From: Acidobacteriota bacterium
GTDB lineage: Bacteria; Acidobacteriota; Vicinamibacteria; Marinacidobacterales; Marinacidobacteraceae
Length of the DNA stretch: 64,000 nucleotides
NCBI GenBank assembly: GCA_022820545.1
Contig: JAJEFG010000097.1
Location: 11,061 to 75,060, forward strand
Reading direction: 5' to 3'
The notes under the pieces are model-generated. The model ran no database searches. It was not told where the DNA came from and worked only from the letters and a program-made list of their open reading frames with translations. The translations under genes and the position numbers were made by a program. Numbering within the stretch: position 1 is the first letter of the stretch; the number at the start of each line of letters is the position of its first letter. Below, in pieces: positions 7,161-38,886 of this stretch.

Positions 7161-7201
7161 GAGCGCCGGCCTCCGGCCGGCATCGCGCGGGAGCGCGAAA
7201 C
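7161..7201 (+). repeat. Type B two-hairpin repeat unit, solo copy (GAGCGCCGGCCTCCGGCCGGCATCGCGCGGGAGCGCGAAAC)
   Basis: This is the canonical copy of a unit recurring at 12306, 12462(rc), 20782, 20931(rc), 26118, 26200, 26356(rc) and 38846(rc). It sits between the S9 paralog stop and the HupE-like start. Confidence 0.65.
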
Positions 7202-7209
7202 CGGTCGCG

Positions 7210-8424
7210 ATGACGCTGCGCCCGGCCACCGTGGGTGCTGCCCGCCATGGCGCGCCGCCATGGCCGGCCCCGGTATCCTCCCGCGTGCCTTCCGCCCGAC
7301 TCGCCCTCGTCGCGGCCCTCCTGCTGGCGAGCGCTGTGACACCGCCCGGTGTCGCCCCTGCCCGCGCCCATCCGCTGGCGTTCACGGAAGTGACCCTCAC
7401 GCTGCGGGACGACGGCGCTTTCGAGGCGAATCTCATCTACGACCTCGACGCGCTGGCGCTCGGCGTGCCCATCACCACGGAGGACACGGAACTGGCGGCG
7501 GCGCTCGCGAGCCTCCCGCCGGGCGAATTCGCGGCGCGCGTCGCCAGCCTGCGGGAGCTGTTCGCGCGGCGCGTCCGGGTCCGGTTCGACGGCGAGCCCA
7601 CGCCGTTCGACGTCTCGTTTCCCGACTACGGCACGCCCCGCGCGACGGAAGCGGACATCCCGACCGTGCTCGGCGTGACGGCGCGCCTCACGGGAAGGGT
7701 CCCCGAACGCGCGTCCACGGTGGGGTTCTTCGCGTCGCGCGCGTTCGGCGAGGTCCACCTGACCATCGTCGACACCGGGCGCGCGGTGGAGGTCCGCTCC
7801 GTCCTCGAACCCGGGGCGCGGAGCGACCCGCTCGATCTCACGGGGCCGGTCTCCCCGCCGGGCCGCCTCGAGGTGGCGGCCCGCTATGCGCGGCTCGGGT
7901 TCGTCCACATCGTGCCGGAGGGTACGGATCACATCCTGTTCGTGCTCGGGCTGTTCCTGCTGAGCGCGCGGCTCCGGCCCCTGATCTGGCAGGTGACCGC
8001 GTTCACGGTGGCGCACGCGGCCACCCTGACCGTGGCGGCGCTGGGCGTCGTCTCCCTCGCCCCGCGCCTCGTGGAGCCGCTCATCGCGCTCTCGATCGCG
8101 TACGTCGCCGTCGAGAACGTCCTGACCGATCGCCTGACCCGCTGGCGTCCGGCCGTGGTCTTCGGCTTCGGGCTGCTGCACGGGCTGGGTTTCGCGGGGG
8201 TCCTCGGCGAGCTGGGCCTGCCCGAGCACGAGCGGCTCCTGGCGCTCGTGACCTTCAATGCCGGCATCGAGCTGGGACAGCTCGCGGTCATCGCGGCCGC
8301 CGCGGGATCGTTCGGGTGGTTCCGCGCGAAGCCGTGGTACCGGCGACGGCTCGCCGTTCCCGCCTCCGCGGTCATCGGGCTGGTTGGCGTGACGTGGGCC
8401 ATCCAGCGGGCCTTGAGCCCCTGA
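7210..8424 (+). CDS. HupE/UreJ family membrane protein with N-terminal periplasmic domain
   Basis: The C-terminal TM region carries HupE/UreJ-like motifs (HIVPEGTDHILFVLGLFLL, GFGLLHGLGFAGVLGE). The signal-like stretch RLALVAALLLASAV suggests the start could be internal. Confidence 0.6.
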   Translation: MTLRPATVGAARHGAPPWPAPVSSRVPSARLALVAALLLASAVTPPGVAPARAHPLAFTEVTLTLRDDGAFEANLIYDLDALALGVPITTEDTELAAALASLPPGEFAARVASLRELFARRVRVRFDGEPTPFDVSFPDYGTPRATEADIPTVLGVTARLTGRVPERASTVGFFASRAFGEVHLTIVDTGRAVEVRSVLEPGARSDPLDLTGPVSPPGRLEVAARYARLGFVHIVPEGTDHILFVLGLFLLSARLRPLIWQVTAFTVAHAATLTVAALGVVSLAPRLVEPLIALSIAYVAVENVLTDRLTRWRPAVVFGFGLLHGLGFAGVLGELGLPEHERLLALVTFNAGIELGQLAVIAAAAGSFGWFRAKPWYRRRLAVPASAVIGLVGVTWAIQRALSP

Positions 8425-8524
8425 CCCGACCGTCGCCTCACGGCCCTCGGCGTTCCCGCGGGTTCACCGCAGGCTGCTAGACTCGCGCGCTGGCGCACGG
8501 CCGAAACCCCACCCCAGATTGCGA

Positions 8525-10735
8525 ATGACCAGGGCGACTCACGGCGCCACCACGCGCGTGACGCTCCTCGTGTCGCTTCTCGCGCTGCCGGCCGGAAGCA
8601 TGGCGGCCCAGGACTGGCCGAGCTGGCGGGGCCGGACGCAGACCGGCGTCTCCGAACAGACCGGGCTCGTGTCGAGCTGGTCGGTGGGCGGGGAAAACCT
8701 CATCTGGTTCCAGGAGTACATCGGCCGCTCGACCCCCGCCGTGTTCGACGGGCGGGTCTGCGCCAACGGGCGTACCGGGGAGGGCGTGGCCAAGAAGGAG
8801 ATCGTCACCTGCTGGGACGCGGAGGACGGCACGAAGCTCTGGGAACACACCTTCGCCGTCTTCAACACGACCGTCCCCTTCAACCGGGTCGGCTGGGGCA
8901 GCGTCACCGGCGATCCGGACACCGGCACCCTCTACGCCATGAACGTGGACGGCCACCTGCACGCCTTCGATCGTGGCGGGGAGATCGTCTGGAGCTGGCG
9001 GCTCGGCGAGGACCTCGGCCGCGCGTCCGGATACGGGGGACGGACTTCGACGCCGATCATCGACGAAGACCGGCTGGTGCTCAGCGTCATCGGCTCGGCC
9101 TGGGGCGAGCTCGGCGGGCCGCCGCGCCACCGCTATGTGGCGTTCGACAAGGCGACCGGGCAGGTTCGCTGGGTCGCGACGCCGGGCGGCACGCCGGCCG
9201 ACCTCAACACGCAGTCGGTGCCCATCGTGGCCGTCGTGGGCGGCCAGCGGCTTCTCGTCGACGGGAACGCCGACGGGAACATCTACGCGCTCCAGGCGCG
9301 CACCGGCAAGAAGGTCTGGGAGTTCCACCTCAGCAAGCGCGGCATCAACGTCTCGCCCGTGATCGACGGTGACACCGTTTTCATCGCGCACAGCGAAGAG
9401 AACCTCGACGCGGGGACCATGGGACGGGTCGTGGCCATTGACGCGACCGGGAGCGGCGACATCACCGCCACCGGCGAGAGGTGGCGCATCAACGAGCTCG
9501 CGGTCGGGTTCTCCTCGCCGCTCATCAAGGACGGCCGGCTCTACGTCATCGACAACTCCGCGAACCTGGTGGCCATCGACGCCGCCAGCGGAGCCGTCGT
9601 CTGGGAGCACAGCGTCGGGACCGTCGGCAAGTCGTCGCCGGTCTGGGCCGACGGCAAGCTCTACGTCACCGAGGTCAACGGCAACGTTCATATCCTCGAG
9701 CCCGGCGCCGACGGCGCCACCGAGCTCGACAGCGACGACGTCGAGGTCGCCGGCGGCCGCGAGGCGGAGATCTACGGTTCGTTCGCCCCGGCGTACGGGC
9801 GGCTCTACGTCACGGCCGAGTCCGGCGTCTATTGCATCGGCGACCCGGACGCGCCCTTCGATCCGGCGCCGGGCGCCACTCCCGCCCTCGAGCCCGAGAG
9901 CGCGCCGACCGGAACGGTCGCGAGCCTGCAGGTGGTCCCCGCCGAGGTCATCGCGGCGGCGGGGCAGACGATCGACTTCCGGCTCCTGGCATTCGATGCC
10001 AACGGACAACCGGCCGGGGAAGCGGCCGCCGTCTGGACGCTCGATGGCCTGACCGGCTCGCAGCTCGGCGAAGACGGCGCGTTCCAGGCGAGCTCCGGGA
10101 CCACCAACCAGGCGGGACGGGTCGTCGCGACGGTGGGCGACGTGTCGGCGGCCGCGCGGGTGCGCATCTTCGCGCCCCTGCCCTGGACCGAGACCTTCGA
10201 GAACGGGCGTCCGCCGCACTGGATCGGCGGGGGCGGAAGCCTCGCCGCGGTGGACGAAGGGGGCGAGCAGCTCTTCCGGAAAGGCGCGTCAAGAACCGGC
10301 ATCCACCGGCACGCCATCTACATCGGCCCGTCCGCGATGTCGAACTACACCGTGCAGGCCGACGTGATGTCGACCGAGCGGGGCCGGCGGCGTCCCGACA
10401 TCGGGCTCATCAACAGCGGCTACACGATGGACCTGCAGGGAAACCACCAGCGGATCGAGGTCCGCTCGTGGGCCGCCGAGCTGCGGATGGCCGAACGGTT
10501 TCCCTTCGCGTGGGACACCGACGTCTGGTACACCCTGAAGCTCCGGGTGGACGTCGCCGATGACCGCGCGCTCATCCGCGGCAAGGTCTGGCGGCGCGGC
10601 GAGGCCGAGCCCGACGACTGGACGGTGACCGTGGAGGACCCGGAGCCGGTGCGCCAGGGAAGCCCCGGCCTCATCGGCTACTCGCCGATCGACATCTACT
10701 ACGACAACGTGCAGGTGATGGAGAACCCCAGGTAA
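8525..10735 (+). CDS. secreted PQQ-like beta-propeller repeat protein with C-terminal Ig-like and DUF1080/LamG-like domain
   Basis: ATG at 8525, signal peptide LLVSLLALPAGSMAAQ. Repeated blades of the form G.LYA.D..TG...W. The C-terminus ...IGYSPIDIYYDNVQVMENPR resembles the DUF1080 (3-keto-disaccharide hydrolase-like) fold. Stop overlaps the next start (TAATG). Confidence 0.7.
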   Translation: MTRATHGATTRVTLLVSLLALPAGSMAAQDWPSWRGRTQTGVSEQTGLVSSWSVGGENLIWFQEYIGRSTPAVFDGRVCANGRTGEGVAKKEIVTCWDAEDGTKLWEHTFAVFNTTVPFNRVGWGSVTGDPDTGTLYAMNVDGHLHAFDRGGEIVWSWRLGEDLGRASGYGGRTSTPIIDEDRLVLSVIGSAWGELGGPPRHRYVAFDKATGQVRWVATPGGTPADLNTQSVPIVAVVGGQRLLVDGNADGNIYALQARTGKKVWEFHLSKRGINVSPVIDGDTVFIAHSEENLDAGTMGRVVAIDATGSGDITATGERWRINELAVGFSSPLIKDGRLYVIDNSANLVAIDAASGAVVWEHSVGTVGKSSPVWADGKLYVTEVNGNVHILEPGADGATELDSDDVEVAGGREAEIYGSFAPAYGRLYVTAESGVYCIGDPDAPFDPAPGATPALEPESAPTGTVASLQVVPAEVIAAAGQTIDFRLLAFDANGQPAGEAAAVWTLDGLTGSQLGEDGAFQASSGTTNQAGRVVATVGDVSAAARVRIFAPLPWTETFENGRPPHWIGGGGSLAAVDEGGEQLFRKGASRTGIHRHAIYIGPSAMSNYTVQADVMSTERGRRRPDIGLINSGYTMDLQGNHQRIEVRSWAAELRMAERFPFAWDTDVWYTLKLRVDVADDRALIRGKVWRRGEAEPDDWTVTVEDPEPVRQGSPGLIGYSPIDIYYDNVQVMENPR

Positions 10736-12183
10736 TGGAGATACGACAGGCGCTGATTCTCGGAGCCCTGGCGGCCCTGGTGGCGCCCACCGCCGCTTCG
10801 GCCCAGGAAATCGCGATGTTCGGCAACACGCCGTCCCGGAACATGGTGTCCGACGAGACGGGCGTCGCCGGCGACTGGGACGTGGATACCGGCCGGAACG
10901 TCCTCTGGTCCCAACCGGTCGGTTCGCAGGCCTACGGCGGGCCGGTGGTCGCGAACGGCCGGGTCTACGTCGGCACCAACAACGAGGGACGCCGCAACCC
11001 CTCCATCGAGGGGGACCGGGGCGTGGTCATGGCGTTCGCGGCGGACACCGGCACGTTCCTCTGGCAGATGGTGCATCCCAAGCTCCCGGCCGGCCGGGTC
11101 AACGACTGGCCGATGCAGGGAGTCTGCTCCACCGCGTTCATGGAGGGGGACCGCATCTACTACGTCTCCAACGAGGCGCACGTGATCTGCCTCGACGCGA
11201 ACGGCTTCGCCAACGGCAACGATGGCCCCTTCACCGACGAGGAAGATACCGGTGAGATTGCCGGAGACATCATCTGGTCCTACGACATGATCGGCGAGCT
11301 GGACGTCTTCCCGCACAACCTCGCCACGGGATCGCCGCTCATCGTCGGCGACGTCCTCTATACCGTCACGAGCAACGGTGTCGACGAGGGACACGTCAAC
11401 GTCCCGTCGCCCTTCTCGCCCGACTTCATCGCCCTCGACAAGAACACCGGCGAACTGCTGTGGGAGAGCACCCCGGTCGGCGAGAACATCCTGCACGGGG
11501 CCTGGACGAACCCGGCCTACGCGGTGATCGGCGGCCGGGCGCAGGTCATCTTCCCCGGCGGCGACGGGGTGATCTACAGCCTGGACGCCGCGACGGGCGA
11601 GCTCATCTGGCAGTTCGACTGCAACCCGAAGGACTCGGAGTGGATCCTCGGCGGCCGCGGGACGCGCAACAACATCCTCTCCACGCCGGTGGTCCACAAC
11701 GACAAGGTGTACATCGGCGTCGGCCAGGACCCGGAGCACGGCGAGGCGCCGGGCCATTTCTGGGTGATCGACGCGACCGGCGCCGGCGACGTCACCGACA
11801 CGCACGCGGTATGGCACCGCGGCGGCGAGGACTTCTACCGCACCATGTCCACCGCGGCGATCGCCGACGGCGTGCTCTACATCTCCAGCCTGTCGGGCTA
11901 CCTGCACGCGCTCGACCCGGAGACCGGGGAGGAGTTCTGGACCTACGACACCTACGCGGCGGTGTGGGGCTCTCCCTTCGTCGTGGACGGCAAGGTCTTC
12001 CTGGGTGACGAGGACGGGGACGTCGTGGTGCTGCGCGCGGGCAAGGAACTGGAGGTCCTCGGGGAGTACAACCTCGGCGCCTCCGTCTACTGCACCCCGG
12101 TGGTCAAGGACGGCGTCCTCTACATCCTCACCCGCAACCGGCTCTGGGCATTCAAGGAAGGCGCGCAGTCCGACCCCCTCTGA
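10735..12183 (+). CDS. secreted PQQ-like beta-propeller repeat protein
   Basis: Signal peptide MEIRQALILGALAALVAPTAASAQ. Propeller blade repeats (GRVYVGT, GVIYSLDAATGELIWQF, GYLHALDPETGEEFWTY). Translationally coupled to the upstream gene. Confidence 0.7.
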   Translation: MEIRQALILGALAALVAPTAASAQEIAMFGNTPSRNMVSDETGVAGDWDVDTGRNVLWSQPVGSQAYGGPVVANGRVYVGTNNEGRRNPSIEGDRGVVMAFAADTGTFLWQMVHPKLPAGRVNDWPMQGVCSTAFMEGDRIYYVSNEAHVICLDANGFANGNDGPFTDEEDTGEIAGDIIWSYDMIGELDVFPHNLATGSPLIVGDVLYTVTSNGVDEGHVNVPSPFSPDFIALDKNTGELLWESTPVGENILHGAWTNPAYAVIGGRAQVIFPGGDGVIYSLDAATGELIWQFDCNPKDSEWILGGRGTRNNILSTPVVHNDKVYIGVGQDPEHGEAPGHFWVIDATGAGDVTDTHAVWHRGGEDFYRTMSTAAIADGVLYISSLSGYLHALDPETGEEFWTYDTYAAVWGSPFVVDGKVFLGDEDGDVVVLRAGKELEVLGEYNLGASVYCTPVVKDGVLYILTRNRLWAFKEGAQSDPL

Positions 12184-12189
12184 CGGCCT

Positions 12190-12213
12190 GGAACGCCGGC
12201 TTCAGCCGGCGCG
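12190..12213 (+). repeat. Type A hairpin repeat, solo copy (GGAACGCCGGCTTCAGCCGGCG)
   Basis: Same core as 2771-2795. Lies immediately after the PQQ-propeller stop. Confidence 0.55.
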
Positions 12214-12305
12214 CGCGGCGCCTCTCCCACCGGGAGAAACCGTCGCGATCGGTCCCCCCTGCACCCCCCGCCGGGCACGAAAACGGCGCGAACGGCTTGA
12301 ACTCG

Positions 12306-12502
12306 GAGCGCCGGCCTCTGGCCGGCATCGCGGCCGCAGGCCGCGAAACGCACGCCGCAGCCGATTCCCATGGCGTCATCCCCACCGGGAACGCCTGCAC
12401 ACCGCCCGAAACGAGCCGGAGTGGACCCCCCTCTTCAGGGAGAGGAGCGCCACCAGCGCGGGTTTCGCGCTCCCGCGCGATGCCGGCCAGAGGCCGGCGC
12501 TC
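12306..12502. repeat. Full ~197-bp type B element: unit (+) at 12306-12349, conserved ~110-bp core, inverted unit at 12462-12502
   Basis: Terminal units are inverted copies; both share the loop variant TCT/AGA. The core resembles the cores at 20823-20930 (opposite orientation) and 26247-26355. Confidence 0.65.
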
Positions 12503-12687
12503 GGAGGCGGCACCACCACAGTCTGCTGGCCAGCCCCGTACCGTTGCACTTTCATGGCAACTGGCGCACCGCGCCCGGCGCAACCCCTACGCGCACCGGT
12601 TGCCCGGCGTTCCCGCGTCCGGTGGACCCGTGAGGTCGGAAATCCAGGCAGGGCGATGCCCGTCACCACACGGGGAGCCCTCACTGC

Positions 12688-12897
12688 CTATTCGGCGGAG
12701 GACAGATTCTCGGCGGACGTCCTGCCGTTGTTTCCGACCTGAAGTTCGTACGAGACCTTCTGCCCCTCGCGAAGCGACTGCAGCCCGGCTTTCTGAACCG
12801 CCGAGATGTGTACGAAAACGTCCTTTGAACGGTCATCGGGCTCGATGAACCCGAAACCTTTTGCCGCGTTGAACCACTTTACAGTGCCGGTAGCCAT
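12688..12897 (-). CDS. cspA: cold-shock protein CspA family
   Basis: [65 protein letters not shown], with RNP1/RNP2 motifs. RBS AGAGGAA upstream. Long upstream untranslated region typical of csp genes. Confidence 0.9.
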
Positions 12898-13158
12898 GAT
12901 TCGTTCCTCTAACAAAACGTGTTGATTCAGCACGCCACACGAAGCGTCGGCGCGCGGTTGGGAGCTCGCCTGGTCAGGGGATCGGAAGCCGAGCCGCGGT
13001 AGCGACCCTTCGAGATCGCACCGGACCAATGCGCGCAAGAACGCGGGAGTACACGCCACCAGCGCCAGGAAGTCAATGACGCGCTCCACCGGAATGACCC
13101 GCGCCCCTCCCGTTGCGCCGCCCGGACGCCGGCGGTCCGGCGGGCGCCGCGCGGGAAG

Positions 13159-15621
13159 CTACCGGGAGCCGCCCGCCTCCAGGCGCCCGTCCACGAACAC
13201 CCAGTCCGGCACCACGCGGTAGTCGAAGGGATGCCCTTCCAGGATGACGAAGTCGGCGTCCTTGCCCGGCTCGATGCTTCCGATCCGGTCGCCCAGGTCA
13301 ATCAGCTCGGCGGCGTTGAGCGTCGCCATCCGGAGCGCGTCCACCTCCGGGACGCCGTTGCGGAAGGCCCACGCGGAGTTGAGGATGGGCTCGCCGCCCA
13401 GCCGCCCGATGGGTGAAGCGCGCCGGGAGGCGCCGGGACCGAAGAACGCCACCTTGACGCCGGCCCGGTTCAGGATGGCGGGTCCCTCCACGCTCCAGCC
13501 CTCGCCGCCCCCGCGGATGTCCGACGCGTAGCTGCCGGAGTTCCCCAGAATGACCCCCGCGCCGGCCGCGGCGAGCCGGCCGGCCAGCCGGTGCGCCTCC
13601 ACCCCGCCGGTGATCACGAGGCGCAGGCCGTAGTCCTCCGCGAGACTCAGGGCCGCTTCGATCTCGGGCGCCCGGTCGGCGTGGACCATCGCCGGCACCT
13701 CGCGCCGGAGTAGCGGCAGGAGCGCCTCGAGGCGCGCGTCGTACTCGGCGGACCCGTCCGCTTCCGAATAGCGCCGTGCGGCATCCAGCGCTTCCCGGAT
13801 CATCGCCGCGGCGCTTTCGAGCGTCAGCGGCGCTCCCGCCTCGTCCGTCCACTCCCGGAGCGCCGACGGGGTGAGGGCGAACACCAGGCTCGCCGGCTCG
13901 CGGCGCACCATCTTCTCGAAGTCGATGCCGGGCGTCTTCACCAGGACGCCGTTCCCGCCGATCAGGTTGCGGGTGCCGGGGGTGACGTGGATCGCGGTCA
14001 CCCCGATCGTGGTGTTCACCCGGTACGAGGGGAACCAGGGGTCCACGGCGTAGAGGGCGTTCATCTCCGGCACCACCGGTTCGGTGATCTCGTCGTTCTG
14101 CACCTGCCACTTGAGGTCGCCGATCCAGTCGTTGGGAAAGGCGCGCGCGATCACGGTTCCCGGCATGACCACCCTGCCCCCGACGTCCATGACCGCCAGC
14201 CCCGCGGGCGGCGCGGCGGCCGCCTCCACCAGCGTGAACCGGCCGTCCTCGACGACGAGGGTGGCGTTCCGGATCTCCCCGCCGCTCACCGTGAACACGT
14301 GCGCGCCGGTGACGGCGAAACTCTCGTCCTCCGCAGTGATCTCCCCGGTCACCGCCGTGAACGGCCCCACCGCGCGCGGCCGGTCCGCCGGGAGCACGCG
14401 GTCGCGCTCGTACTCGAGCCGCCCGTCCACGAACACGCGCTCCACCCGGTCGGCGGTCAGGTCGAGGAAGTGCCCGTCGAGGAGCACCAGGTCCGCGTCC
14501 TTCCCGACCTCGATGCTGCCGATCCGGTCCTGGAGCATCATGGCGCGCGCTCCGTTGATGGTCATGATCTCGAGCGCCTGGTCGTCGGTGAGCCCGTGCC
14601 GCGCCAGAAAGGCCCCGTACTCGCGGAAGTCCTTGAAGTGCTGGTTCGACATGTCCGTCTGGATGCTGGCGTGCACGCCGGCGTCGAGGAGGTCCTTCAG
14701 CAGGTTCAGGGGCTCGGGATCGCCCCAGTACTGGACGATCATCATCGGACCGATGACCGGGACGATCTCGGTTCCGGCGAGCAGTTCCGTAAGCGGGAAG
14801 ATCTCCTCCGCGTGGGCGAGCGCCAGGCGGTCGAAGAAGCCGTACCTGCGCGCGAGGCGCAGCACCATCATCACCTCGCTCGGATAGTGCGCGTGGGCGT
14901 GCACCATGACCTCGCCCCGGATCACGGCCGCGAAGGCCTCGAGGCGCTCGTCGCGCTCGGGCGCCGCTCCCTCTCCGGCGGCGTGCGCTTCCTGCTCCCG
15001 CACGTAGGCCGCGGCGCGGCGGAAGTAGTCGTCGGCGACGGCGTACCAGCCCATCACCGTCTGCGGCGTCTCGCCGGGCCGCAGGTTGATCAGCGGCCGT
15101 ACCGCCATCTTCAGATCCACGTACGGCTTGAGGATCATCTCCGGGCCCGGATTGCGCTTCAGCTTCAGCGCGACCGCCTGCCCGCTGGAGATGATGCCGC
15201 TGCCCGAGCGCGTGACCAGCGACGTCACGCCGCCGGAGAGCGCCACCTGGAGCATTGGGTCCGACAGGTCGAGATGCTCCACCGCCTTCCACTCGGCGGT
15301 CACCGGGCCGGGAATACGCGCGCGGCTGGAACGGTCGAGGGCGGCGTGCGCGTGGGCGTCGATCAGGCCCGGGATCACGGTCGCCGCTTCGTACACCGGG
15401 GTCCCGGCGGGAACGTCGAGAGACGCGCCCACGGCTTCGATGATCCCGTCCCGGATCAGGATCTCGCCGTCCTGAAGCGTCCCGCCGGTGACGGTGTGGA
15501 TCGTCCGTCCACGAACGAGGACGGTCTCGGACTGGGCGCTCGCCGTGCCGGCCCCGGCGACGGCGAGCGCCACGAGCGCCGCGAGCCGCCTGCGCCTTCG
15601 GCTCGACGTGCGCCAGCTCAT
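13159..15621 (-). CDS. secreted metal-dependent amidohydrolase family protein (two tandem amidohydrolase-like halves)
   Basis: Signal peptide LAALVALAVAGAGTASAQ. N-terminus has amidohydrolase HxH (GLIDAHAHA). A second, similar beta-sandwich/TIM region occurs in the C-terminal half. 820 aa. Confidence 0.65.
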   Translation of the reverse strand: MSWRTSSRRRRRLAALVALAVAGAGTASAQSETVLVRGRTIHTVTGGTLQDGEILIRDGIIEAVGASLDVPAGTPVYEAATVIPGLIDAHAHAALDRSSRARIPGPVTAEWKAVEHLDLSDPMLQVALSGGVTSLVTRSGSGIISSGQAVALKLKRNPGPEMILKPYVDLKMAVRPLINLRPGETPQTVMGWYAVADDYFRRAAAYVREQEAHAAGEGAAPERDERLEAFAAVIRGEVMVHAHAHYPSEVMMVLRLARRYGFFDRLALAHAEEIFPLTELLAGTEIVPVIGPMMIVQYWGDPEPLNLLKDLLDAGVHASIQTDMSNQHFKDFREYGAFLARHGLTDDQALEIMTINGARAMMLQDRIGSIEVGKDADLVLLDGHFLDLTADRVERVFVDGRLEYERDRVLPADRPRAVGPFTAVTGEITAEDESFAVTGAHVFTVSGGEIRNATLVVEDGRFTLVEAAAAPPAGLAVMDVGGRVVMPGTVIARAFPNDWIGDLKWQVQNDEITEPVVPEMNALYAVDPWFPSYRVNTTIGVTAIHVTPGTRNLIGGNGVLVKTPGIDFEKMVRREPASLVFALTPSALREWTDEAGAPLTLESAAAMIREALDAARRYSEADGSAEYDARLEALLPLLRREVPAMVHADRAPEIEAALSLAEDYGLRLVITGGVEAHRLAGRLAAAGAGVILGNSGSYASDIRGGGEGWSVEGPAILNRAGVKVAFFGPGASRRASPIGRLGGEPILNSAWAFRNGVPEVDALRMATLNAAELIDLGDRIGSIEPGKDADFVILEGHPFDYRVVPDWVFVDGRLEAGGSR

Positions 15622-15667
15622 CTTCCTGTCCTCCCCCCGAGGTCCGGCCGGCCCGCCGAACCGGACG

Positions 15668-16765: not shown

Positions 16766-16790
16766 GGTTCCTCTCGGTCGTGAACCCTTG

Positions 16791-20773: not shown

Positions 20774-20781
20774 TCGCGTCG

Positions 20782-20974
20782 GAGCGCCGGCCTCCGGCCG
20801 GCATCGCGCGGCAGCGCGAAACCTGCGCTGACAACGCTCTTTCCGTGGACGGGGCCAGGTTCCGCTCGCTTCGGGCGGCGCTGCCCCGTTCCCGGTTCGG
20901 ATCGCGCCGTGGGAATCGGTGGTGGCCCGCGTTTCGCGGCCTGCGGCCGCGATGCCGGCCGGAGGCCGGCGCTC
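20782..20974. repeat. Full ~193-bp type B element: unit (+) at 20782-20822, core, inverted unit at 20931-20974
   Basis: Same architecture as 12306-12502, but the core lies in the opposite orientation relative to the flanking units. The second hairpin of the right unit uses the stem GCGGCC/GGCCGC instead of GCGCG/CGCGC. Confidence 0.65.
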
Positions 20975-21032
20975 CGAGCCCGAGCTGTCCCCGTCATTTC
21001 CATTCCGCCGCGGTGCGCACGACGACACGTTC

Positions 21033-26102: not shown

Positions 26103-26117
26103 ACGAAGGGCCGCTCG

Positions 26118-26433
26118 GAGCGCCGGCCTCCGGCTGGCATCGCTCCCCGGAGGGGAGCGAAACGCGCACCGCCACGGACTCCATTCGACGCGAGCCTCGG
26201 AGCGCCAGCCTCCGGCTGGCATCGCCGACCTCGGGGAGGGGAAAGGCACGCTGCTACCGAGCGTCATCCCGTGATCACCATCTGGACCAGCACAACCCGG
26301 GCCGCGAAGAGCCGAGCGTGGCCTCCGTTCGCGGGAAGGAGCGCCGCCGGCGCGGGTTTCGCGCTCCCGCGCGATGCCGGCCGGAGGCCGGCGCTCCGAC
26401 TGGCGCTCCGACTGGCGCTCCGGCCGGCGCTCC
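26118..26433. repeat. Composite type B repeat region: units (+) at 26118-26163 and 26200-26246, core, inverted unit at 26356-26396, then a 12-bp tandem repeat x4 (26386-26433)
   Basis: In unit 1 the first hairpin reads GCCGGCC/GGCTGGC, a G-U wobble. In unit 2 it reads GCCAGCC/GGCTGGC, a compensatory pair. The second hairpin of unit 1 uses the stem GCTCCCC/GGGGAGC. The trailing sequence repeats (t/c)GGCGCTCCG(a/g)(c/t) four times. Confidence 0.65.
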
Positions 26434-31773: not shown

Positions 31774-33147
31774 ATGACGACGCGCCGCCTCTCCGTCACC
31801 CTTCTGATCGCTTCGCTGACGCTTCCGGCAGCGGCACTGGCCCAGACCGGCGAACCTCCCGGAAGGGATCCCCGGATGTACGGCCTCATCGAAGCCGTCT
31901 CCGCCGAGCGCATCGAGTCCGACATCCGCACCCTGGTGAGCTTCGGAACGCGGCACACCCTCTCCGAGACCGAGAGCGAGACCCGGGGGATCGGCGCTGC
32001 GCGGCGCTGGATCCACGCGGAATTCACGCAGATTTCGGATGCCTGCGGCGGCTGTCTCGAGGTGTCCTACCAGCGGAACGTGGTGCCGGGGCGGGAGGGA
32101 AGCCGCATCCCGGTGGACACCGAGGTCGTGAACGTCCTCGCCACCCTGCGGGGCGCCAGCGAGCCGAACCGCATCGTCATCATGTCGGGGGACATCGACA
32201 GCCGGGTGTCCGACGCGAACAACTTCACCGACGATTCGCCGGGGGCCAACGACAACGCGAGCGGCATGGCGGGCGCCATCGAGGCCGCCCGGGTGCTGAG
32301 CCGACACGCCGGCTCCTTCCCCGCCACGATCATCCTGGCCGGACTCTCCGGGGAGGAACAGGGGCTCTACGGCGGCCGGCACATGGCGAGCGTGGCCCGG
32401 GAGGAGGGCTGGGACATCGACGCCGTCCTGAACAACGACATGATCGGCAACATCGAAGGGGTGGACGGGGTCATCCGCAACGACGTCTTCCGGGTGTTCT
32501 CGGAACCGACCCCGGTGACGGAGACCGAGGAGGCGCGGCGGCGGCGGCGCGTCACCGGCGGCGAGGTGGACGGCGTGTCCCGGCAACTCGCGCGCTACGT
32601 GGCGCGGATGGCCGACCTCTACATCCCCAATCTCGAGGCCAGGATGATCTACCGTCTCGACCGCTTCGGGCGCGGCGGGCACCACCGCCCCTTCAACGAC
32701 GCGGGGTTCCCGGGCGTCCGCATCATGGAGACCCACGAGAACTACCGGCGCCAGCACCAGGACCTCCGCGTCGAGGACGGGATCGAGTACGGCGACGTGA
32801 TCGAGGGAGTGAACTTCGACTACGCGGCGAAGCTGACCGGGGTGAACGTGATCACCCTCGCCGGGCTCGCCTGGGCGCCCGCCCCGCCCACCGGGGTCGG
32901 GATCGCCGGCGCGGTGCGGGCGTCCGCCGTCCTGTCGTGGGATCCGGTGGCTTCCGACAGCCTCGCGGGCTACCGCGTCTACTGGCGGGACACCACCGCG
33001 CCCCAGTGGGAGCACTCGCGGTTCGTCGGGGACGCCACCGAGTACACGTTCGAGAACCTGGTGATCGACAACTACCTGTTCGGGGTGGCGTCGGTGGGGG
33101 CGGACGGGAACGAGAGCGTCGTGGTGTTTCCGACGGCCCGCCGGTAG
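31774..33147 (+). CDS. secreted M28 family Zn-aminopeptidase with C-terminal fibronectin type III-like domain
   Basis: Signal MTTRRLSVTLLIASLTLPAAALAQ. M28 metal ligands (IVIMSGDIDS... NDNASGMAGAIEAA... GEEQGLYG). C-terminus resembles FN3 (LSWDPVASDSLAGYRVYWRD). Confidence 0.8.
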   Translation: MTTRRLSVTLLIASLTLPAAALAQTGEPPGRDPRMYGLIEAVSAERIESDIRTLVSFGTRHTLSETESETRGIGAARRWIHAEFTQISDACGGCLEVSYQRNVVPGREGSRIPVDTEVVNVLATLRGASEPNRIVIMSGDIDSRVSDANNFTDDSPGANDNASGMAGAIEAARVLSRHAGSFPATIILAGLSGEEQGLYGGRHMASVAREEGWDIDAVLNNDMIGNIEGVDGVIRNDVFRVFSEPTPVTETEEARRRRRVTGGEVDGVSRQLARYVARMADLYIPNLEARMIYRLDRFGRGGHHRPFNDAGFPGVRIMETHENYRRQHQDLRVEDGIEYGDVIEGVNFDYAAKLTGVNVITLAGLAWAPAPPTGVGIAGAVRASAVLSWDPVASDSLAGYRVYWRDTTAPQWEHSRFVGDATEYTFENLVIDNYLFGVASVGADGNESVVVFPTARR

Positions 33148-36100
33148 TCGGGGGGGGCGTGCGTAGCCCGCAAGGGCGGAAGGAGTAGCGACGTGCGCGG
33201 CGCGGAGCCCCGCGGCGCCGGTCTGGGTGCCATTAGCTGTTTCGCAGCCCACACGGGCAGCGCAGCCCGCCGGAGGCCGGCCCACCGAGGGTTCGACGTC
33301 CGGCGGCGGCTCAGGGCGCGGAAGTACTCCTCGACCATGTCGCGGTAGCGCTCGGGGGCGCGGTCGTCGGAGCCGGTGAGGACATCGACTCCGGAGCCTC
33401 CGGTCAGGGCGCGGCGCAGCTCGAACTCGAGTTGCCGGAGGGTGTCGAGGACTTCGGCTTCGAGGATCTCCATGCCGCGCGGGTCTCCGGTCAGGCGCTC
33501 GGGGGTCAGATCGCGGAGGGCGTCCACCACCTCTCCCAATCGGTCGCTCCCGCGGTCTCCGCTGGCCCCGATGCCGGTCAGTTCCCGGCGCAGCGCCTCC
33601 GCATCCTGGACCCGCCGGTCGAGTTCGCGCCGTAGCTGACGGGCCTCCCGCCCCTCGGCGCCCCCACCGCCGCCTCCCTGCCCCTGAGACGACTCCTGTC
33701 CCTCAGAGGACTCCTGCCCCGCCGACCCCTGCGACGGTGAATCGGACTGCGATTCCGGCTGTTCCGCACGGTCGGCGAGACGGTTCCGCAGACCCTCGAG
33801 CCCCCGGACCAGACTCGCCGCCCGGTCGAGGACATCGTCGCGGCCGGCGCGGTCCGAACCTTCCACCACTTCCCGCGCCTCCGCGAGATCCTGCTCCAGC
33901 GCTTCGAGATCGTTCGCGATCATCGATTCGAACTGGTCGGCGTAGTCCGGCGACCGCTGCGCCGCGACCCCGCGGGAGTAGTGGATCTTCTCCTTCAGCT
34001 TCCGGTCGCGGATCCCGTCCGCGGCATCGCCGACCGCGTCAGCGGCCTCCGGTTCATCCCGGCTCCAGTCGCGGCTGACCTCGTCGAGCTGCTGCTCGAG
34101 CCGCTGGACCCGCTCGGCGAGGTCCTGCTTCTGCCCCGAAACCTGAGCGATCGCTTCCCGGGTCCGCTCCTCTTCGAGATCCTGGACGGCGGAACGGATC
34201 CGGTCCTGCGCGGCCCGGAGCCGCTTCGTCTCGTCGAGGGCGTTCTGGACGTCGCGCGCCAGGCGTTCCCGCCGCTGCCCATCCAGATCGCGCCGGGCGT
34301 TCCGCAGCTCGTTCGCAGCCGACAGGCCGCTTTCGAGTCCTTCGGAGCCGTTTGCCGACCGCATGTCCTGCGCCGCATCGCGGAGTCTCCGGGAAACCGC
34401 CGCGAGATCCGGGCGCGAGCGCTCGCGGGCCAGGCGTTCGAGCCGCCGGGCCACATCTTCGGTCTCGGCGGCGAGCTGGTTCTGGGCCGAGCCGGCGCCG
34501 CCCCCGGACTGGCGCACGCCGCGGCGAATCCGTTCGTTCTCCTGCTCCTGGCGGCGGGCAAGCTCCGCGAGACGCTGAAGGAGTTCGTCCACTTCGTTGT
34601 CCGCGGACGAGCGCTGCTGCTGCTCCACCGTCTCGTACTGGTTGCGGAGCTTGTCCATCTCGAGTTCGAACAGACTCGCCAGGTCCTCCGCCTGGGCGCG
34701 CGGGCCGCCACCGCCGCCGCCTCCGCCGCCCTGACCGAACGCGACCTGCACATCGCGGAAGACCGCGTCGGCGCGCTGCAGGTGGGTCAGCGCCTTCTGC
34801 TCGCGGGGGAGGGCGTCGTCCGGATTGCCGGCAATGAGCAGCTCCTCGGCGACCGTCATCTCCACGAGCCCCGCGTCGAGATGCTCCACGATCTCGGAGA
34901 ACTCCGCCGTCGCTCCGATGCCGCGGTTGCGGAGGCGCCGGTTCAGCGTCGCCACCTGCTCCCGGAGACGGCCCTGGGCGAGGCCGATGGTGGCGACGGT
35001 CTCGGTGACCGCGCTGGCCGGCATGCCGTCCCGATCGCGAAGGACCTTGAAGGTCGCGACGACGATCTGCTTCTGGCGCAGGCTGAGCGTGCCGTCGAGT
35101 CCGTCGCCGCCGCCGCCGGCGCCCGCACCCGGCATGGTGTCGCCCTGCCGGTACGTCCGGTCGAACGGCCGCACCGCGATGAAGAAGATGTCGGTCGCGG
35201 CCTCGGCCCCCGCCCCGTCCCGCGCCACCGCGTAGTAGGAAACGAGATCACCCGGCACGAGATCGTGTTCCTCGAGGAACAGCGTGTGCCCGGTCTGGAT
35301 CTCGTCGCGGGCCCCTCGGGAAGCGAGCACCTCCCGGGTCTCCTCACCACCGTTGACCGAGACCCGCAGCTCCACCCGCCGCAGCGCGTAGTCGTCCTCG
35401 GCAAGGACCTCGGTGAAGACCTCCTCCACCGGGTTGGCCTGCGTGTCCCTGCCGGGGCGCAGGAACCGCACGATGGGAGGCAGGTCCTCGAGCACCTCGA
35501 TCAGGTAGTCGCGGGAGGCCGTGCGCAGGTTCCCGTCCGGTCCGGCGAGCGCCACCCGGTAGGAGCCGCTCTCCGAGAGCCGGAGCGTGGCGGCCAGCAG
35601 CTCGGCGCCCGCGCCGGTGGGCGAGTCCTCCGGCGCCTCGGGCGCTTCGAGGGGGATCTCGATCGGTCCCGGTTCCAGGCGCACCACGCCGGCCGCCGCG
35701 GGCACCGTGGGGATCACCGTCAGTTCGACGACCGTGCCGGCCACGGCGGCGATATCTCCCCCGTCCTCGACCTCGCGGGGGCTCAGTCCGGTATGTTCCG
35801 GATAGCGGTAGCGAAGGCCGATCCGTCCCACGTAGGGGACGTCCTCGACCTCGATCCGGAATGTCGGCGAGAGCACCCCGTCCGCGTCCACGTAGTAGTC
35901 CGTCGCTTCCGGAATCCCGAGCAGCAGGTGCCGGAAGGCGCCGTCCTCCGGGTCGGGCAGCATGGGGACCGTTTCCCAGAGCCCGCTGCCCTCGACGCGG
36001 GTGCGGAGGTCCACCCGTTCCGCCGTGAACCCTTCCAGCCGGGCTGCGATCCACCGGTCCGAGTCGCGCGCCACGGCGGCGTCCCCCGGCTCCACCAGCA

Positions 36101-36725
36101 CCCGGTAGGGGTTCGCGTCGGTGATGTCGCCCCAGGGGGAAAGGAGGAGAGCGGCGCCGCGTAGCAGCGCCGGGGGGGCGAGGAGGGAAGCCACGATGGC
36201 CACGCCCGCGACGGTGGCGAGCGCCCCTCCGGCGCGGCGGAGCGCCGAACTCTCGATGAGCCGGCCCTCGTTCAGCGTCTCCAGGCGGCGGATGGCCTCC
36301 TCCACCACGAGGCGCGTGAGATCCGCGGAAATCCCGCTGCCGCGGGTGCCCTCCTGCTCATCCCGGTGGCCCAGCTCGACGCCGCTGCTGACCGATTCCC
36401 GCAGCGTGGGATCGTGTTCCTCGACGTAGCGCGCCACCTGCTCGTCGGTCACCCGGGAGCGGAGAGGCCGTACGACGAAACGCCAGACGACCGCGCCGAA
36501 GGTCAGCCACGCCGCGGCCTGCAGCCCGCGGACCACCCACGGCGCGTAGCGCAGCGCATCCATTGCCGCCGACGAGACCCCGACGACAAGCACGGCGGCC
36601 GCCGCGACCATCGTGAAGCCGAGGATGAGCCGCCGGGTGCGCCAGCGGTTCCGCACCCGGCGGATGACCCGGAGGAGGTCGTCGTAGGAAGACCGGGGCG
36701 ACGAGTACAACCCGAGTGTCGTCAT
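33072..36725 (-). CDS. large membrane-anchored coiled-coil protein (resembles DUF4175-type proteins of Bat/MoxR operons)
   Basis: N-terminal TMs (LILGFTMVAAAAVLVVGV; LQAAAWLTFGAVVWRFVV). A long central coiled-coil/charged region follows, including poly-Gly runs. 1218 aa from the ATG at 36725. Last gene of the minus-strand MoxR operon. Confidence 0.6.
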   Translation of the reverse strand: MTTLGLYSSPRSSYDDLLRVIRRVRNRWRTRRLILGFTMVAAAAVLVVGVSSAAMDALRYAPWVVRGLQAAAWLTFGAVVWRFVVRPLRSRVTDEQVARYVEEHDPTLRESVSSGVELGHRDEQEGTRGSGISADLTRLVVEEAIRRLETLNEGRLIESSALRRAGGALATVAGVAIVASLLAPPALLRGAALLLSPWGDITDANPYRVLVEPGDAAVARDSDRWIAARLEGFTAERVDLRTRVEGSGLWETVPMLPDPEDGAFRHLLLGIPEATDYYVDADGVLSPTFRIEVEDVPYVGRIGLRYRYPEHTGLSPREVEDGGDIAAVAGTVVELTVIPTVPAAAGVVRLEPGPIEIPLEAPEAPEDSPTGAGAELLAATLRLSESGSYRVALAGPDGNLRTASRDYLIEVLEDLPPIVRFLRPGRDTQANPVEEVFTEVLAEDDYALRRVELRVSVNGGEETREVLASRGARDEIQTGHTLFLEEHDLVPGDLVSYYAVARDGAGAEAATDIFFIAVRPFDRTYRQGDTMPGAGAGGGGDGLDGTLSLRQKQIVVATFKVLRDRDGMPASAVTETVATIGLAQGRLREQVATLNRRLRNRGIGATAEFSEIVEHLDAGLVEMTVAEELLIAGNPDDALPREQKALTHLQRADAVFRDVQVAFGQGGGGGGGGGPRAQAEDLASLFELEMDKLRNQYETVEQQQRSSADNEVDELLQRLAELARRQEQENERIRRGVRQSGGGAGSAQNQLAAETEDVARRLERLARERSRPDLAAVSRRLRDAAQDMRSANGSEGLESGLSAANELRNARRDLDGQRRERLARDVQNALDETKRLRAAQDRIRSAVQDLEEERTREAIAQVSGQKQDLAERVQRLEQQLDEVSRDWSRDEPEAADAVGDAADGIRDRKLKEKIHYSRGVAAQRSPDYADQFESMIANDLEALEQDLAEAREVVEGSDRAGRDDVLDRAASLVRGLEGLRNRLADRAEQPESQSDSPSQGSAGQESSEGQESSQGQGGGGGGAEGREARQLRRELDRRVQDAEALRRELTGIGASGDRGSDRLGEVVDALRDLTPERLTGDPRGMEILEAEVLDTLRQLEFELRRALTGGSGVDVLTGSDDRAPERYRDMVEEYFRALSRRRTSNPRWAGLRRAALPVWAAKQLMAPRPAPRGSAPRTSLLLPPLRATHAPPDYRRAVGNTTTLSFPSAPTDATPNR

Positions 36726-36795
36726 GGGCGCGGGGTTGTCGGAGTATAGGCACCTCCGCACCGGGCCGCCGCGCGGGGGGGCATTCCGCCGGGAA

Positions 36796-38841
36796 TCACC
36801 CCGGAACTCCGGGCGCCACGCTCCGGTTTGCGGCCCATGCCTCGCTCACCAGGAGCAGCAGGAACGCGGCGAGCAACAGCCACGAAGCCGCCCGTCCGGG
36901 CAGGTCCGCAGCGACGGGGTTCGCCGCCGCCTGAGCTTCCCCCTCCGCTGCCGCCACGGCCGCGATCCGGACTTCCGCGGGGTCGAGCGTTCGAAGGTCC
37001 GATTCGGCAAGGGGAGGATTCACTCCGATCTGGTGGAAATCCGCCGTCCCCGGCCGCCGGGCGCGGTAGAAGCCGGGTTCCACGAGACGAAGCGCGTCCA
37101 TGCCGTCCAGGACGGTGCGTTCCCCCGAGGGAGAGTCGGCCAGCACCTCCTCCGCTTCTCCCGCCGGACCGCTCGCCAACCGGAACGCGGCGGCGGGATC
37201 CACGCTCTCGCCGACCCGGTAGGCAATCGGAATCCGCTCGTGACCCGCGGCGAACTCCACCATCCGGTGCAGCAGCGGGACGAATGCGGCGCGCCGGGGC
37301 AGGTCGGTCCACTCCGCGTCGAGCGAGGAAGCGAACAACAGCGTCCTCCCTTCTCCCCACTCCGACTCCACCATGGCCGGCTTGCCGTCGTCGAAACGCC
37401 CCAGGACCGCGGCATCGGGTGGGATCCCGGTGAGGTCCCGGTACCGGAAGAACGCAAGCGTGCCGAGGACCGCGGAGCCCTCACCCCCGAAGGGCTCGAA
37501 GACCGGGTGCCGGGCCGCCAGGTCTCCGAGGCGTCCCGCCGGGTCGCGGTCCACGAAACCTCCGGGCACCGCCGGGGCAAACCTCTCGAGTTCCTCGGTC
37601 GCCGCCCGCGACAGCCGGCGCGGGCCGGTGGCCATCACGAGGCCCCCGCCGTCCTCGACGAAGTCCCCGAGCGCGCGGATCGCACCGGCGTCGAGGCGGC
37701 CCGGGTCCCGGACGAGCGCCACCTGGACGCCTTCGAGCGCACCGCGCACCGCGCCTTCTCCCCGGGCCGGACCGCGGTCCAGCAGGAAACCGGGGGCGAC
37801 GCCCACTCCGAGCGCCTCGCTGACGTACACCGAGGGTGGACTGCCACCGAGGTCGGCGACCCGGATCGCCGCCTCCGGGTGGATCATCAGGTGAAAACGG
37901 TCGTCGCCCGGGAAGCCGTCTTCGGGAAGGCGCACTTCGGCGGCGAGGGGTTCGCTCGGGCGCAGGACCGGGTCGAACCGGACCGTCGTCATCCGGTCGG
38001 CCGCGGCGGTGAGCGTCTTCCGGTCCACCTGCCGGCCCGAAAGCGAGAGTTCGATCTCGCCGCTCCACTCCGGAGTCGCGGGAGAGGGCGCGAAGCCCAC
38101 CTCGGCGGTCACCACGAGCTGCTCCCGGCCGTCGGACACCACCGTCACATCCGCGATCCAGGCGTTCGCCGGCGGGCCCGCGCTCACCTGCCGCACCCGG
38201 AGTTCGACGCCGGGCGGCAGGCTGGGTTGCGGCCGGCCGTCTTCGAAACCACTCCGCTGGAGATCGGAGATCAGCACCACTTCCCGGCGCCGGCCCGCGG
38301 CCCCGGGCAGCAGGCGGCCGGCGAGGCCGAGGGCGGGGGCATAGCTCGTACCGCCGCCCCCTGCGGAGAGGTTGGCCACGGCCGGCGCCAGCGTTCCCCG
38401 GTCCCCGGTCAACTCGGTGAGCGCCGCCGCCCGCCCGTCGAAGGCGACCACGATGGCCCGGTCCTCCCGGCCCAGGCCGCTCACTTCCTCCTGCGCCGCC
38501 TCCCGGGCGGCCGCCATCCGGTTCCCCACCGTCATGCTCAGCGAGCGGTCCACGAGGACCGCCCGATCGAGCGCCGTTCCTTCCCCGCCGGCGAGCGCGC
38601 CTCCGCGCAGCACCGGCTCGGCAAACGCAGCGGCCAGCAGCAAGAGCGCGAGGCAGCGGAGGATCAGCAGGGGGATGTTCCGAAACCGGCGGCGCTTGAA
38701 CCGCGCCGTCGCGCTCGTCAACTGGAGCAGCAGGAACGAGGGGAACGGGACCGGCTCGCGCCGGCGGCGGGTGAGGTGCAGGACGATGGGGACGGCGACG
38801 AGGAGGGTTCCGAGCAGGAACAGCGGGGCCAGGAAACTCAT
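36796..38841 (-). CDS. BatA-like protein: N-terminal double-TM aerotolerance-regulator-type domain plus vWA domain
   Basis: MSFLAPLFLLGTLLVAVPIVLHL is the hallmark BatA_N start. The vWA region follows (...VLVDRSLSM...). Confidence 0.75.
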   Translation of the reverse strand: MSFLAPLFLLGTLLVAVPIVLHLTRRRREPVPFPSFLLLQLTSATARFKRRRFRNIPLLILRCLALLLLAAAFAEPVLRGGALAGGEGTALDRAVLVDRSLSMTVGNRMAAAREAAQEEVSGLGREDRAIVVAFDGRAAALTELTGDRGTLAPAVANLSAGGGGTSYAPALGLAGRLLPGAAGRRREVVLISDLQRSGFEDGRPQPSLPPGVELRVRQVSAGPPANAWIADVTVVSDGREQLVVTAEVGFAPSPATPEWSGEIELSLSGRQVDRKTLTAAADRMTTVRFDPVLRPSEPLAAEVRLPEDGFPGDDRFHLMIHPEAAIRVADLGGSPPSVYVSEALGVGVAPGFLLDRGPARGEGAVRGALEGVQVALVRDPGRLDAGAIRALGDFVEDGGGLVMATGPRRLSRAATEELERFAPAVPGGFVDRDPAGRLGDLAARHPVFEPFGGEGSAVLGTLAFFRYRDLTGIPPDAAVLGRFDDGKPAMVESEWGEGRTLLFASSLDAEWTDLPRRAAFVPLLHRMVEFAAGHERIPIAYRVGESVDPAAAFRLASGPAGEAEEVLADSPSGERTVLDGMDALRLVEPGFYRARRPGTADFHQIGVNPPLAESDLRTLDPAEVRIAAVAAAEGEAQAAANPVAADLPGRAASWLLLAAFLLLLVSEAWAANRSVAPGVPG

Positions 38842-38845
38842 GCGG

Positions 38846-38886
38846 GTTTCGCGCTACCGCGCGATGCCGACCGGAGGTCGGCGCTC
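38846..38886 (-). repeat. Type B repeat unit, solo inverted copy inserted between the DUF58 and BatA-like genes
   Basis: The first-hairpin variant GCCGACC/GGTCGGC is a compensatory double change. It is flanked by a ~26-nt duplication of the BatA-like gene start (38816-38841 vs 38890-38915). Confidence 0.65.

Follow-up and report, generated by a model that had tools for sequence, protein, structure and literature searches.

REP/RAYT systems and the repeat family of the window

The closest described relatives of the repeats considered here are the short repetitive extragenic palindromic (REP) sequences together with the domesticated REP-associated tyrosine transposases (RAYT) that spread them, the "REPtron" of E. 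coli, Pseudomonas and Stenotrophomonas; to our knowledge, such systems have been characterised almost entirely in Proteobacteria. In the E. coli TnpA-REP system, as in the IS200/IS605 family, the enzyme reads a hairpin and its 5' foot in single-stranded DNA and cleaves and rejoins nearby, without target duplication. The present analysis concerns a stretch of 64,000 nucleotides (the window, G+C ~71%) from an Acidobacteriota bacterium (GenBank assembly GCA_022820545.1, contig JAJEFG010000097.1, positions 11,061 to 75,060), in which a two-hairpin repeat unit, type B, occurs singly and as inverted pairs of ~200 bp. With a probability of roughly 0.8, the units are REP sequences and the pairs are doublets similar to the REP doublets forming hairpins (REPIN) or to the bacterial interspersed mosaic elements (BIME), all belonging to the family of one RAYT (HUH-Y1) clade in these Acidobacteriota, since RAYT genes of related genomes are flanked by type B and distant homologues carry the same foot and first hairpin.

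The likeness to the REP/RAYT systems comprises GC-rich extragenic palindromes in high copy with a conserved 5' foot beside the stem, many of them near stop codons, and a RAYT gene at a conserved syntenic position with sense REPs upstream and inverted REPs downstream (loci L197, L111, L102, L195, L097). However, the foot here is GGAG(C), or GGAA in a sister type, at 1 nt from the stem, in place of the canonical GTAG or GT[AG]G; published surveys classify REPs by their GTAG or CGTC tag (PMC3733652). The unit is also bipartite: a near-invariant hairpin 1 precedes a hypervariable hairpin 2 with CGC/GCG as its closing pairs, and AAAC comes last. The RAYT clade differs by the motifs NHVH, W-M and YIRNNP and by an N-terminal extension of ~45 residues (alignment A4), and this motif combination fits exactly none of the subclass signatures tabulated, with the typical REP forms of the RAYT subclasses, in PMC6006769. 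The hosts are uncultured Acidobacteriota, many of them from sponge metagenomes.

REPINs (Bertels and Rainey 2011, PMC3116915) likewise consist of two inverted REPs forming one long hairpin within a narrow range of doublet sizes; here, in contrast, the spacer of ~110 bp is conserved and asymmetric, the arms carry different hairpin-2 types, and singlets outnumber doublets in the sample. The BIMEs of E. coli, with Y and Z REPs and linker motifs, share the two REP subtypes in opposite orientation and the conserved linker between them, but have no sequence relation to the present units. The ends of IS200/IS605 elements and of their miniature derivatives, the palindrome-associated transposable elements (PATE), also offer subterminal hairpins to an HUH-Y1 enzyme on single-stranded DNA without target duplication; in IS200/IS605, however, the end hairpins lie in the same orientation on one strand with the transposase between them as a mobile unit, while the enzyme here scores as a RAYT and sits at a fixed syntenic locus. 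What is new is, accordingly, a REP family with a GGAG foot in sponge-associated Acidobacteriota; its REP/RAYT kind is known, and the differences make no new category. The recovery of this class therefore removes most of the novelty, as the preliminary description of the window had anticipated, and a literature search, by motif string and by the combination of RAYT with sponge, returned no description of this family.

Anatomy and position of the units

The unit consensus, obtained from position-specific counts over 137 copies, reads TC-GGAGC-[GCCGGCC-TCC-GGCCGGC]-AT-[CGC...GCG]-AAAC, with the general plan TC-GGAGCGCC-hairpin1-AT-hairpin2-AAAC, in which GGAGCGCC is the 5' foot. Conservation sets in abruptly at the TC before the foot and declines within a few bases past GAAAC; at 21 positions it is partly given by construction, because the genome scan demanded exact matches there and left free only the fourth and fifth pairs of hairpin 1, a single loop base and whatever lies beyond the motif. 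The foot is invariant as TC-GGAG-C. Hairpin 1 has a 7-bp stem that is 99.5% paired, and hairpin 2 a 5-8-bp stem that is 92% paired, the remainder being a conserved G-A/A-G mismatch. The closing pairs of hairpin 2 are always C-G, G-C, C-G; above them, about a dozen stem types with 73 distinct sequences are found, nearly all perfectly paired. The tandem mismatch (CGCC-GA-CC / GG-GA-GGCG) is kept in ~25 copies of one hairpin-2 family, with the adjacent pair flipping from C-G to G-C.

All nine unit copies reported in the preliminary description were recovered in the window by the motif GGAGCGCCGGCCTCCGGCCGGCATCGC with up to 3 mismatches (7160+, 12305+, 12503-, 20781+, 20975-, 26117+, 26199+, 26397- and 38887-), and 0 of 100 dinucleotide-preserving shuffles of the window yielded any such match. 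A covariance model built from related copies regained the same nine at 51-74 bits and added one degenerate type-B copy and three units of the sister family (type A), with no convincing unit past 39 kb in the window. The type-B sites are as follows.

7157..7201, plus strand: solo type-B unit (putative REP), exact motif, 58.9 bits by the model, sense, 20 nt past the stop of gene 5118-7136(+)
12302..12506, both strands: inverted doublet (REPIN/BIME-like), left unit 12302-12349(+), core 12350-12461, right unit 12462-12506(-)
20778..20978, both strands: inverted doublet, units 20778-20822(+) and 20931-20978(-), 4 nt past the stop of gene 19769-20773(+)
26114..26163, plus strand: solo type-B unit, G-T wobble in hairpin 1, hairpin 2 GCTCCCCGGAGGGGAGC, 74.1 bits by the model
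26196..26400, both strands: inverted doublet, left unit 26196-26245(+), right unit 26356-26400(-), found by motif, model and alignment A1
38842..38889, minus strand: solo type-B unit, hairpin 1 GCCGACC/GGTCGGC, 54.4 bits by the model at 38846-38890, sense

The inverted pairs with a conserved core that had been proposed at three loci are real, except that the span 26118-26396, first taken as one pair, resolves into the solo unit 26114-26163 and the doublet 26196-26400. The hairpin-1 variants GCCAGCC/GGCTGGC (at 26199), GCCGACC/GGTCGGC (at 38887) and the G-T wobble form (at 26117), as well as the hairpin-2 variants GCGCG, GCGGCC and GCTCCCC, were read again in the sequence. The position at gene 3' ends was also borne out: by our own gene calls, made with a codon-usage model trained on the window, all five type-B sites lie just 3' of stop codons. 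The unit 26114-26163(+) begins 11 nt past the stop of gene 24630-26102(+), and the unit 38842-38889(-) separates the stop of gene 38925-39872(-) from the start of gene 36796-38841(-). The doublet 12302-12506, with GCGGCCGCAGGCCGC as hairpin 2 of its left unit and GCGCGGGAGCGCG in its right unit, sits between gene 10735-12183(+) and a minus-strand csp gene, and the element 20778-20978 is its reverse complement. Hairpin 1 of the left unit in the doublet 26196-26400 is GCCAGCC/GGCTGGC, and hairpin 2 of that unit is decayed.

The further matches of the model in the window are the following.

2768..2929, both strands: two inverted sister "type A" units (GGAACGCCGGCTTCAGCCGGCAC plus hairpin 2), 2768-2819(+) and 2885-2929(-), found by the model
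12187..12240, plus strand: solo type-A unit, 21 bits by the model, 3 nt past the stop of gene 10735-12183(+)
33239..33289, minus strand: degenerate type-B-like copy, 36.2 bits by the model, 5 motif mismatches, within the 3' part of the called gene 33072-36710(-)

The last of these may be a decayed unit taken into coding sequence or a chance resemblance.

RAYT genes among the repeats

Bona fide RAYT genes were identified in genomes related to the window. An E. coli RAYT sequence served as the first probe, as a lead only, and its single match was verified with Pfam and NCBIfam: the protein of L097 (OZ219815) scores 92.5 bits against the cut-off of 80 with the NCBIfam equivalog NF047646 for the REP-associated tyrosine transposase and 32.5 bits against the cut-off of 23 with Pfam Y1_Tnp, and its gene is flanked by inverted two-hairpin repeats of a closely related type. 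Five further proteins reach 84.6-96.8 bits with the same equivalog (cut-off 80), while the IS200 model gives 19.5-23 bits on these proteins, under its cut-off of 55. Across 10 sequences, neither histidine of the HUH motif (NHxH, in most cases NHVH) varies, nor does the Y-motif tyrosine (consensus YIRNNP), and the sole sequence match in the PDB is E. coli TnpA-REP (4ER8). RAYT genes are embedded in the repeats as follows.

L198 (P0038): RAYT gene 2001-2744, seven type-B units around and overlapping its 3' end, six without mismatch in the 27-nt motif
L197 (P0031): one type-B unit upstream, sense, and three downstream, inverted; hairpin 1 GGTC/GACC
L196 (P0009): three type-B units upstream of the RAYT gene
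L110 (P0033): two type-B units upstream of the RAYT gene; hairpin 1 GACC/GGTC
L102, L111, L195, L115: arrays of sister REP types around the RAYT gene

The substrate of a REP/RAYT system, named among several possibilities in the preliminary description, thus becomes the leading reading, because RAYT genes are flanked by type B in the first four of these loci. In the metagenome loci L115/L116, the RAYT gene is flanked by exactly the "type A" of the window. The metagenome scan for RAYT loci returned mostly distant homologues, and those 43-55% identical have ctgGGAGCGCCGGC-NTCCN-GCCGGCAT beside the gene; since these distant homologues carry both the foot and hairpin 1, the two form the conserved "handle" of the whole RAYT clade, and hairpin 2 with the 3' motif is lineage-specific. 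Within one genome, the same hairpin-1 variant was found in the RAYT-flanking repeats (L111-L113) and in a dispersed type-B copy (L112, position 600), as co-evolution would predict. The RAYT gene lies between ThyA-DHFR-RidA and an M16 peptidase in three assemblies (L102, L114, L197), and among the matches listed there is one clade member per complete chromosome.

By analogy with the described enzymes, the RAYT would bind the invariant foot (TC-GGAGC) and hairpin 1 formed in single-stranded DNA, and would cleave and rejoin beside them, seeding and replacing copies in intergenic DNA. Hairpin 1 and the foot would then be under sequence and structure constraint from the enzyme, and hairpin 2 under structure constraint only, any stem sequence being suitable provided that pairing holds. 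Most surviving copies would be sense copies just past stop codons, where they are probably transcribed with the gene and, as GC-rich hairpins of the mRNA 3' end, either tolerated or of slight benefit; such a role in RNA, like the catalysis, is predicted from the comparison.

Two observations concern the RAYT genes themselves. At L198 2688-2744, the RAYT open reading frame (ORF), which ends ...SSAGERGAPASGRHRPRSGRNSQT, has a type-B unit as its last ~19 codons, so that a REP lies within the 3' end of its own transposase gene. Also, RAYT genes occur amid long tandem REP arrays with a period of ~80-121 nt and up to 13 copies (L102 2429-2900 and 3730-4570; L103; L111; L195; L097 1040-1600).

Distribution and turnover

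A scan with GAGCGCCNNCCTCNGGNNGGCATCGC over one genome per species gave at least 101 stretches, which among the matches listed come from 13 assemblies; all but one are labelled Acidobacteria, Acidobacteriota, Vicinamibacteria or "Ca. Marinacidobacterium", the exception being a degenerate copy in WGAH01, labelled Deltaproteobacteria. The motif was absent from 2.9 million viral contigs. The window genes are 83-90% identical to those of two Vicinamibacteria chromosomes, OZ220713 and OY821641; one window protein is identical in many assemblies, of which the four contigs listed are metagenome scaffolds, and the related contigs derive from sponge metagenomes. Because the matches span assemblies, the family is neither a local duplication nor the property of a single genome, and the possibility of its being confined to the window, which the preliminary description had named as a refutation, is set aside by this search in related genomes.

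At two orthologous sites, whose flanking genes are 83-90% identical, the REP occupants were found to differ in type, number and hairpin 2, with one arm and the flanking genes retained.

window 26100-26400 against L019 (OZ220713) 2320-2500
window 20830-20985 against L098 4960-5200

Different occupants between aligned flanking genes point, therefore, to turnover at fixed hotspots. A link between the hairpin-2 type and a downstream "cargo", for which the type might have served as a marker, was considered and rejected as weak (identity of 37.8% inside types and 31.8% across them).

Gene context and possible role in transcripts

Across the loci, 137 of 141 units lie outside called genes. Solo units in co-directional intergenic regions are in the sense orientation in 31 of 40 cases, or in 25 of 30 after orthologous sites were collapsed (p = 3e-4). 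This bias tracks gene direction, and no replication-strand bias was detected with local GC skew as a proxy (34:30). About 40% of the units that are sense to the upstream gene start within ~13 nt of its stop codon. The sense bias, taken with the short distance to stop codons, suggests survival of those copies that do no harm, or are of use, as hairpins at the 3' end of an mRNA. The REPs of E. coli protect mRNA 3' ends and, when close to the stop codon, affect translation of the upstream gene.

It is possible, though with the odds against it, that the units are primarily transcript elements selected by the host, i.e., 3'-end hairpins that stabilise mRNA, stop transcription or modulate translation termination, which the RAYT only spreads; this overlaps partly with the REP/RAYT reading and is not exclusive of it. 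The sense orientation of the collapsed site clusters, its dependence on gene direction and not on GC skew, and the position of the units just past stop codons, including five of the five window sites, are what such a role would lead one to expect, as is the unit 38842-38889, which is read through by a 25-codon ORF coupled to a gene start by an ATGA overlap. The units, however, end in GAAAC and are followed by no T tract, and 0 of 8 terminator-like sites in 7000-26999 coincide with a unit, so that the suggestion of a canonical intrinsic terminator finds no support. For the possible small RNA of the preliminary description, a search of Rfam 15 gave no match at gathering thresholds and no match on any unit at E <= 1. 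Since G-T pairs (16) are not significantly more frequent than A-C pairs (8), there is also no clear sign that only one strand folds, as would be the signature of an RNA. Besides, 18 units lie in divergent, promoter-side regions, and the gene calls behind the orientation counts are our own and crude.

The GAAAC end also brought up the attC and CRISPR-repeat readings; both were rejected, as the units are not at cassette boundaries and do not form regularly spaced arrays.

Constraint on pairing

Pairing was assessed in two alignments. In the ungapped alignment of 29 distinct 50-nt units, 91.7% of the cells are paired against 82.6% in shuffles and 21-43% with slid partners; in the model-based alignment of 130 distinct copies, which was fitted to the structure, the values are 95.7% against 83.9% and 25-37%, respectively. 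The observed pairing and double-change values were attained by 0 of 500 shuffles in both. Double-change cells, to be read as counts of copies and not as independent events, number 37 against 12.5 in shuffles in the ungapped alignment and 196 against 72 in the model-based one. In hairpin 1 of the latter, 34 double changes from G-C to A-T or from C-G to T-A stand against 4 G-T pairs and 5 unpaired cells. Within hairpin-2 families, the loop sites vary by 7-30% per site and the 3' stem arm by <1%, the loops being at least 10 times more variable than the stems. With pairing and double changes above all shuffle controls, selection on structure rather than neutral decay, as initially proposed, is supported, and substitutions that break pairing as often as they keep it, named there as the contrary outcome, were not found: pairing is kept far more often.

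An unlikely explanation is that pairing is maintained by a mutational mechanism, namely by template switching or gene conversion between the arms of a palindrome, with the hairpin-2 types as a few amplified lineages. The hairpin-2 sequences do fall into discrete stem types with many copies each, the 3' arm GGCTGGC is common to the unit 26117 and its neighbour 26199, and at one orthologous site the whole of hairpin 2 is exchanged between the window and L019 (GCGCGGGAGCGCG against GCGGCCGCAGGCCGC), with no stepwise change. Copying from arm to arm would, however, erase the conserved tandem G-A/A-G mismatch; moreover, the loops diverge freely while the stems do not, and the hairpin-1 variants occur in combination with several hairpin-2 types.

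A more specific proposal, which is quite improbable, treats the units as a two-module REP class, in which the GGAG foot and hairpin 1 would serve as the RAYT handle and the hypervariable hairpin 2 with GAAAC would be kept for a transcript function of the host, such as shielding mRNA 3' ends or governing translation termination and re-initiation directly past stop codons. The ATGA-coupled ORF reading through 38842-38915 hints at translation control in this sense, and, if the proposal were true, sponge-symbiont Acidobacteriota would have domesticated RAYT/REP as a genome-wide layer of 3'-end regulation.

Inverted doublets and flanking sequences

The three doublets of the window share an asymmetric core, which aligns with related doublets (alignment A1) at a mean column identity of 65%. 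All 16 of the 16 inverted pairs across the loci have the feet outward, with spans of 152-233 bp and one of 431 bp. As single-stranded DNA, a doublet forms an inter-arm stem of ~31 bp, with z = -6.4 for one strand of 20778-20978 and -6.75 for the other. The right arms of the window doublets contain an 8-nt GGCGCTCC able to pair with the foot GGAGCGCC, and this pairing would close a three-way junction around hairpins 1 and 2.

For 89 of 91 units, direct repeats in the flanks do not exceed background, and the general lack of target duplications is expected for HUH-Y1 elements. The two remaining cases, with the partial feet described below, are the following.

38816-38841 and 38890-38915, minus strand: 26-nt direct repeat with 1 mismatch, abutting both ends of the 48-nt unit 38842-38889
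L015 2800-3040: similar abutting 24-nt duplication, containing a stop codon
26401..26433, minus strand: three partial foot copies, GGAGCGCCGGCC / GGAGCGCCAGTC / GGAGCGCCAGTC, 12 nt each, abutting the 5' end of the unit 26356-26400

Both duplications include a gene end. Each 26-nt copy at 38816-38915 begins at an ATG on the minus strand; from the distal ATG, a 25-codon ORF runs through the unit to a TGA stop overlapping the ATG (ATGA) of gene 36796-38841(-). Partial feet lie 9-14 nt upstream of 20 of 139 units over all loci, an enrichment of ~5 times over the background of 2.8% per 40 nt, and TGGCGC, which could pair with the foot, follows GAAAC at 20-25 nt in 22 of 97 units, an enrichment over the 4-7 of 97 on the upstream side.

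The MITE- or BIME-like architecture ascribed to the inverted pairs holds in its REPIN/BIME-like form, while it is very improbable that the doublets are ordinary miniature inverted-repeat transposable elements (MITE), i.e., deletion derivatives of a DDE-type insertion sequence with the units as its terminal inverted repeats, for although their size of 152-233 bp, the ~45-nt inverted ends with feet outward and the two elements with flanking direct repeats would fit, no flanking repeat above background accompanies 89 of 91 units, most ends are solo, the two duplications (24 and 26 nt) greatly exceed the usual length of DDE target duplications, the sole transposase-family gene among the repeats is the HUH-Y1 RAYT, and no parent insertion sequence with unit ends was met in the loci examined, the systematic search having been aimed at RAYT homologues only.

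Weighing and significance of the REP/RAYT reading

Several findings weigh against the reading of the units as REP sequences of a RAYT clade. No RAYT or IS200-like gene was found in the window by phmmer and tblastn. The RAYT of OY821641 (P0035), the closest complete relative with a detected RAYT, is flanked by the sister type GGAGCGCCGGTSTTCASACCGGCAC and not by type B, and the pairing of type B with a RAYT appears in related genomes (L198, L197, L196, L110) rather than in the own lineage of the window. The foot departs from the canonical one, as described above. Solo units outnumber paired ones (82 against 29 in classified contexts, in a sample gathered by single-unit matches in 8-kb tiles), unlike the REPIN picture with the doublet as the replicating unit. 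The double-change cells count copies, and much of the hairpin-2 diversity may come from replacement of whole hairpins. The two units with flanking duplications of 24-26 nt are not predicted by Y1 transposition; these duplications, the partial feet, the TGGCGC enrichment and the excess of solo units are not accounted for by a simple REP/RAYT model.

If the reading is right, the family extends REP/RAYT systems to uncultured, often sponge-derived Acidobacteriota and provides a natural dataset, with an invariant recognition hairpin beside a freely co-varying one and with hairpin-1 variants that track RAYT lineages, useful for studies of substrate reading by HUH-Y1 enzymes and of the co-evolution of REPs with RAYTs. 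The repeats also explain fragmented assemblies, with which the length of only ~1 kb of many RAYT-bearing contigs is consistent, and they create spurious ORFs and can mislead intergenic annotation in these metagenome-assembled genomes. With its sense bias and its position near stop codons, the family lends itself to a test of a role at mRNA 3' ends in sponge metatranscriptomes that already exist.

Other observations

A 19-nt sequence, CCAGT(T/C)CTCCCGGTGGGGG (also written CCAGTYCTCCCGGTGGGGG), occurs ~18 times in the loci examined (L008, L041, L044, L055, L056, L061, L068, L069, L071, L080, L110 and L114), in either orientation and at least 12 times inside hairpin 1 or 2 of REP units, and in the window not at all. 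Either a tiny nested insertion or the footprint of an excision could be involved, with REP stems as the target.

A cold-shock protein gene at 12688-12894(-) was missed by our gene caller; over its leader lies, at 12735-13011(-), a sub-threshold match to the Rfam cspA thermoregulator (29.8 bits, gathering score 78, E = 4e-4). The genes 3041-5053 and 5118-7136 are adjacent paralogues, 77% identical over 300 nt (repeat D1) and with an internal periodicity of 120 nt (repeat D8), and probably encode tandem-duplicated repeat-domain proteins.

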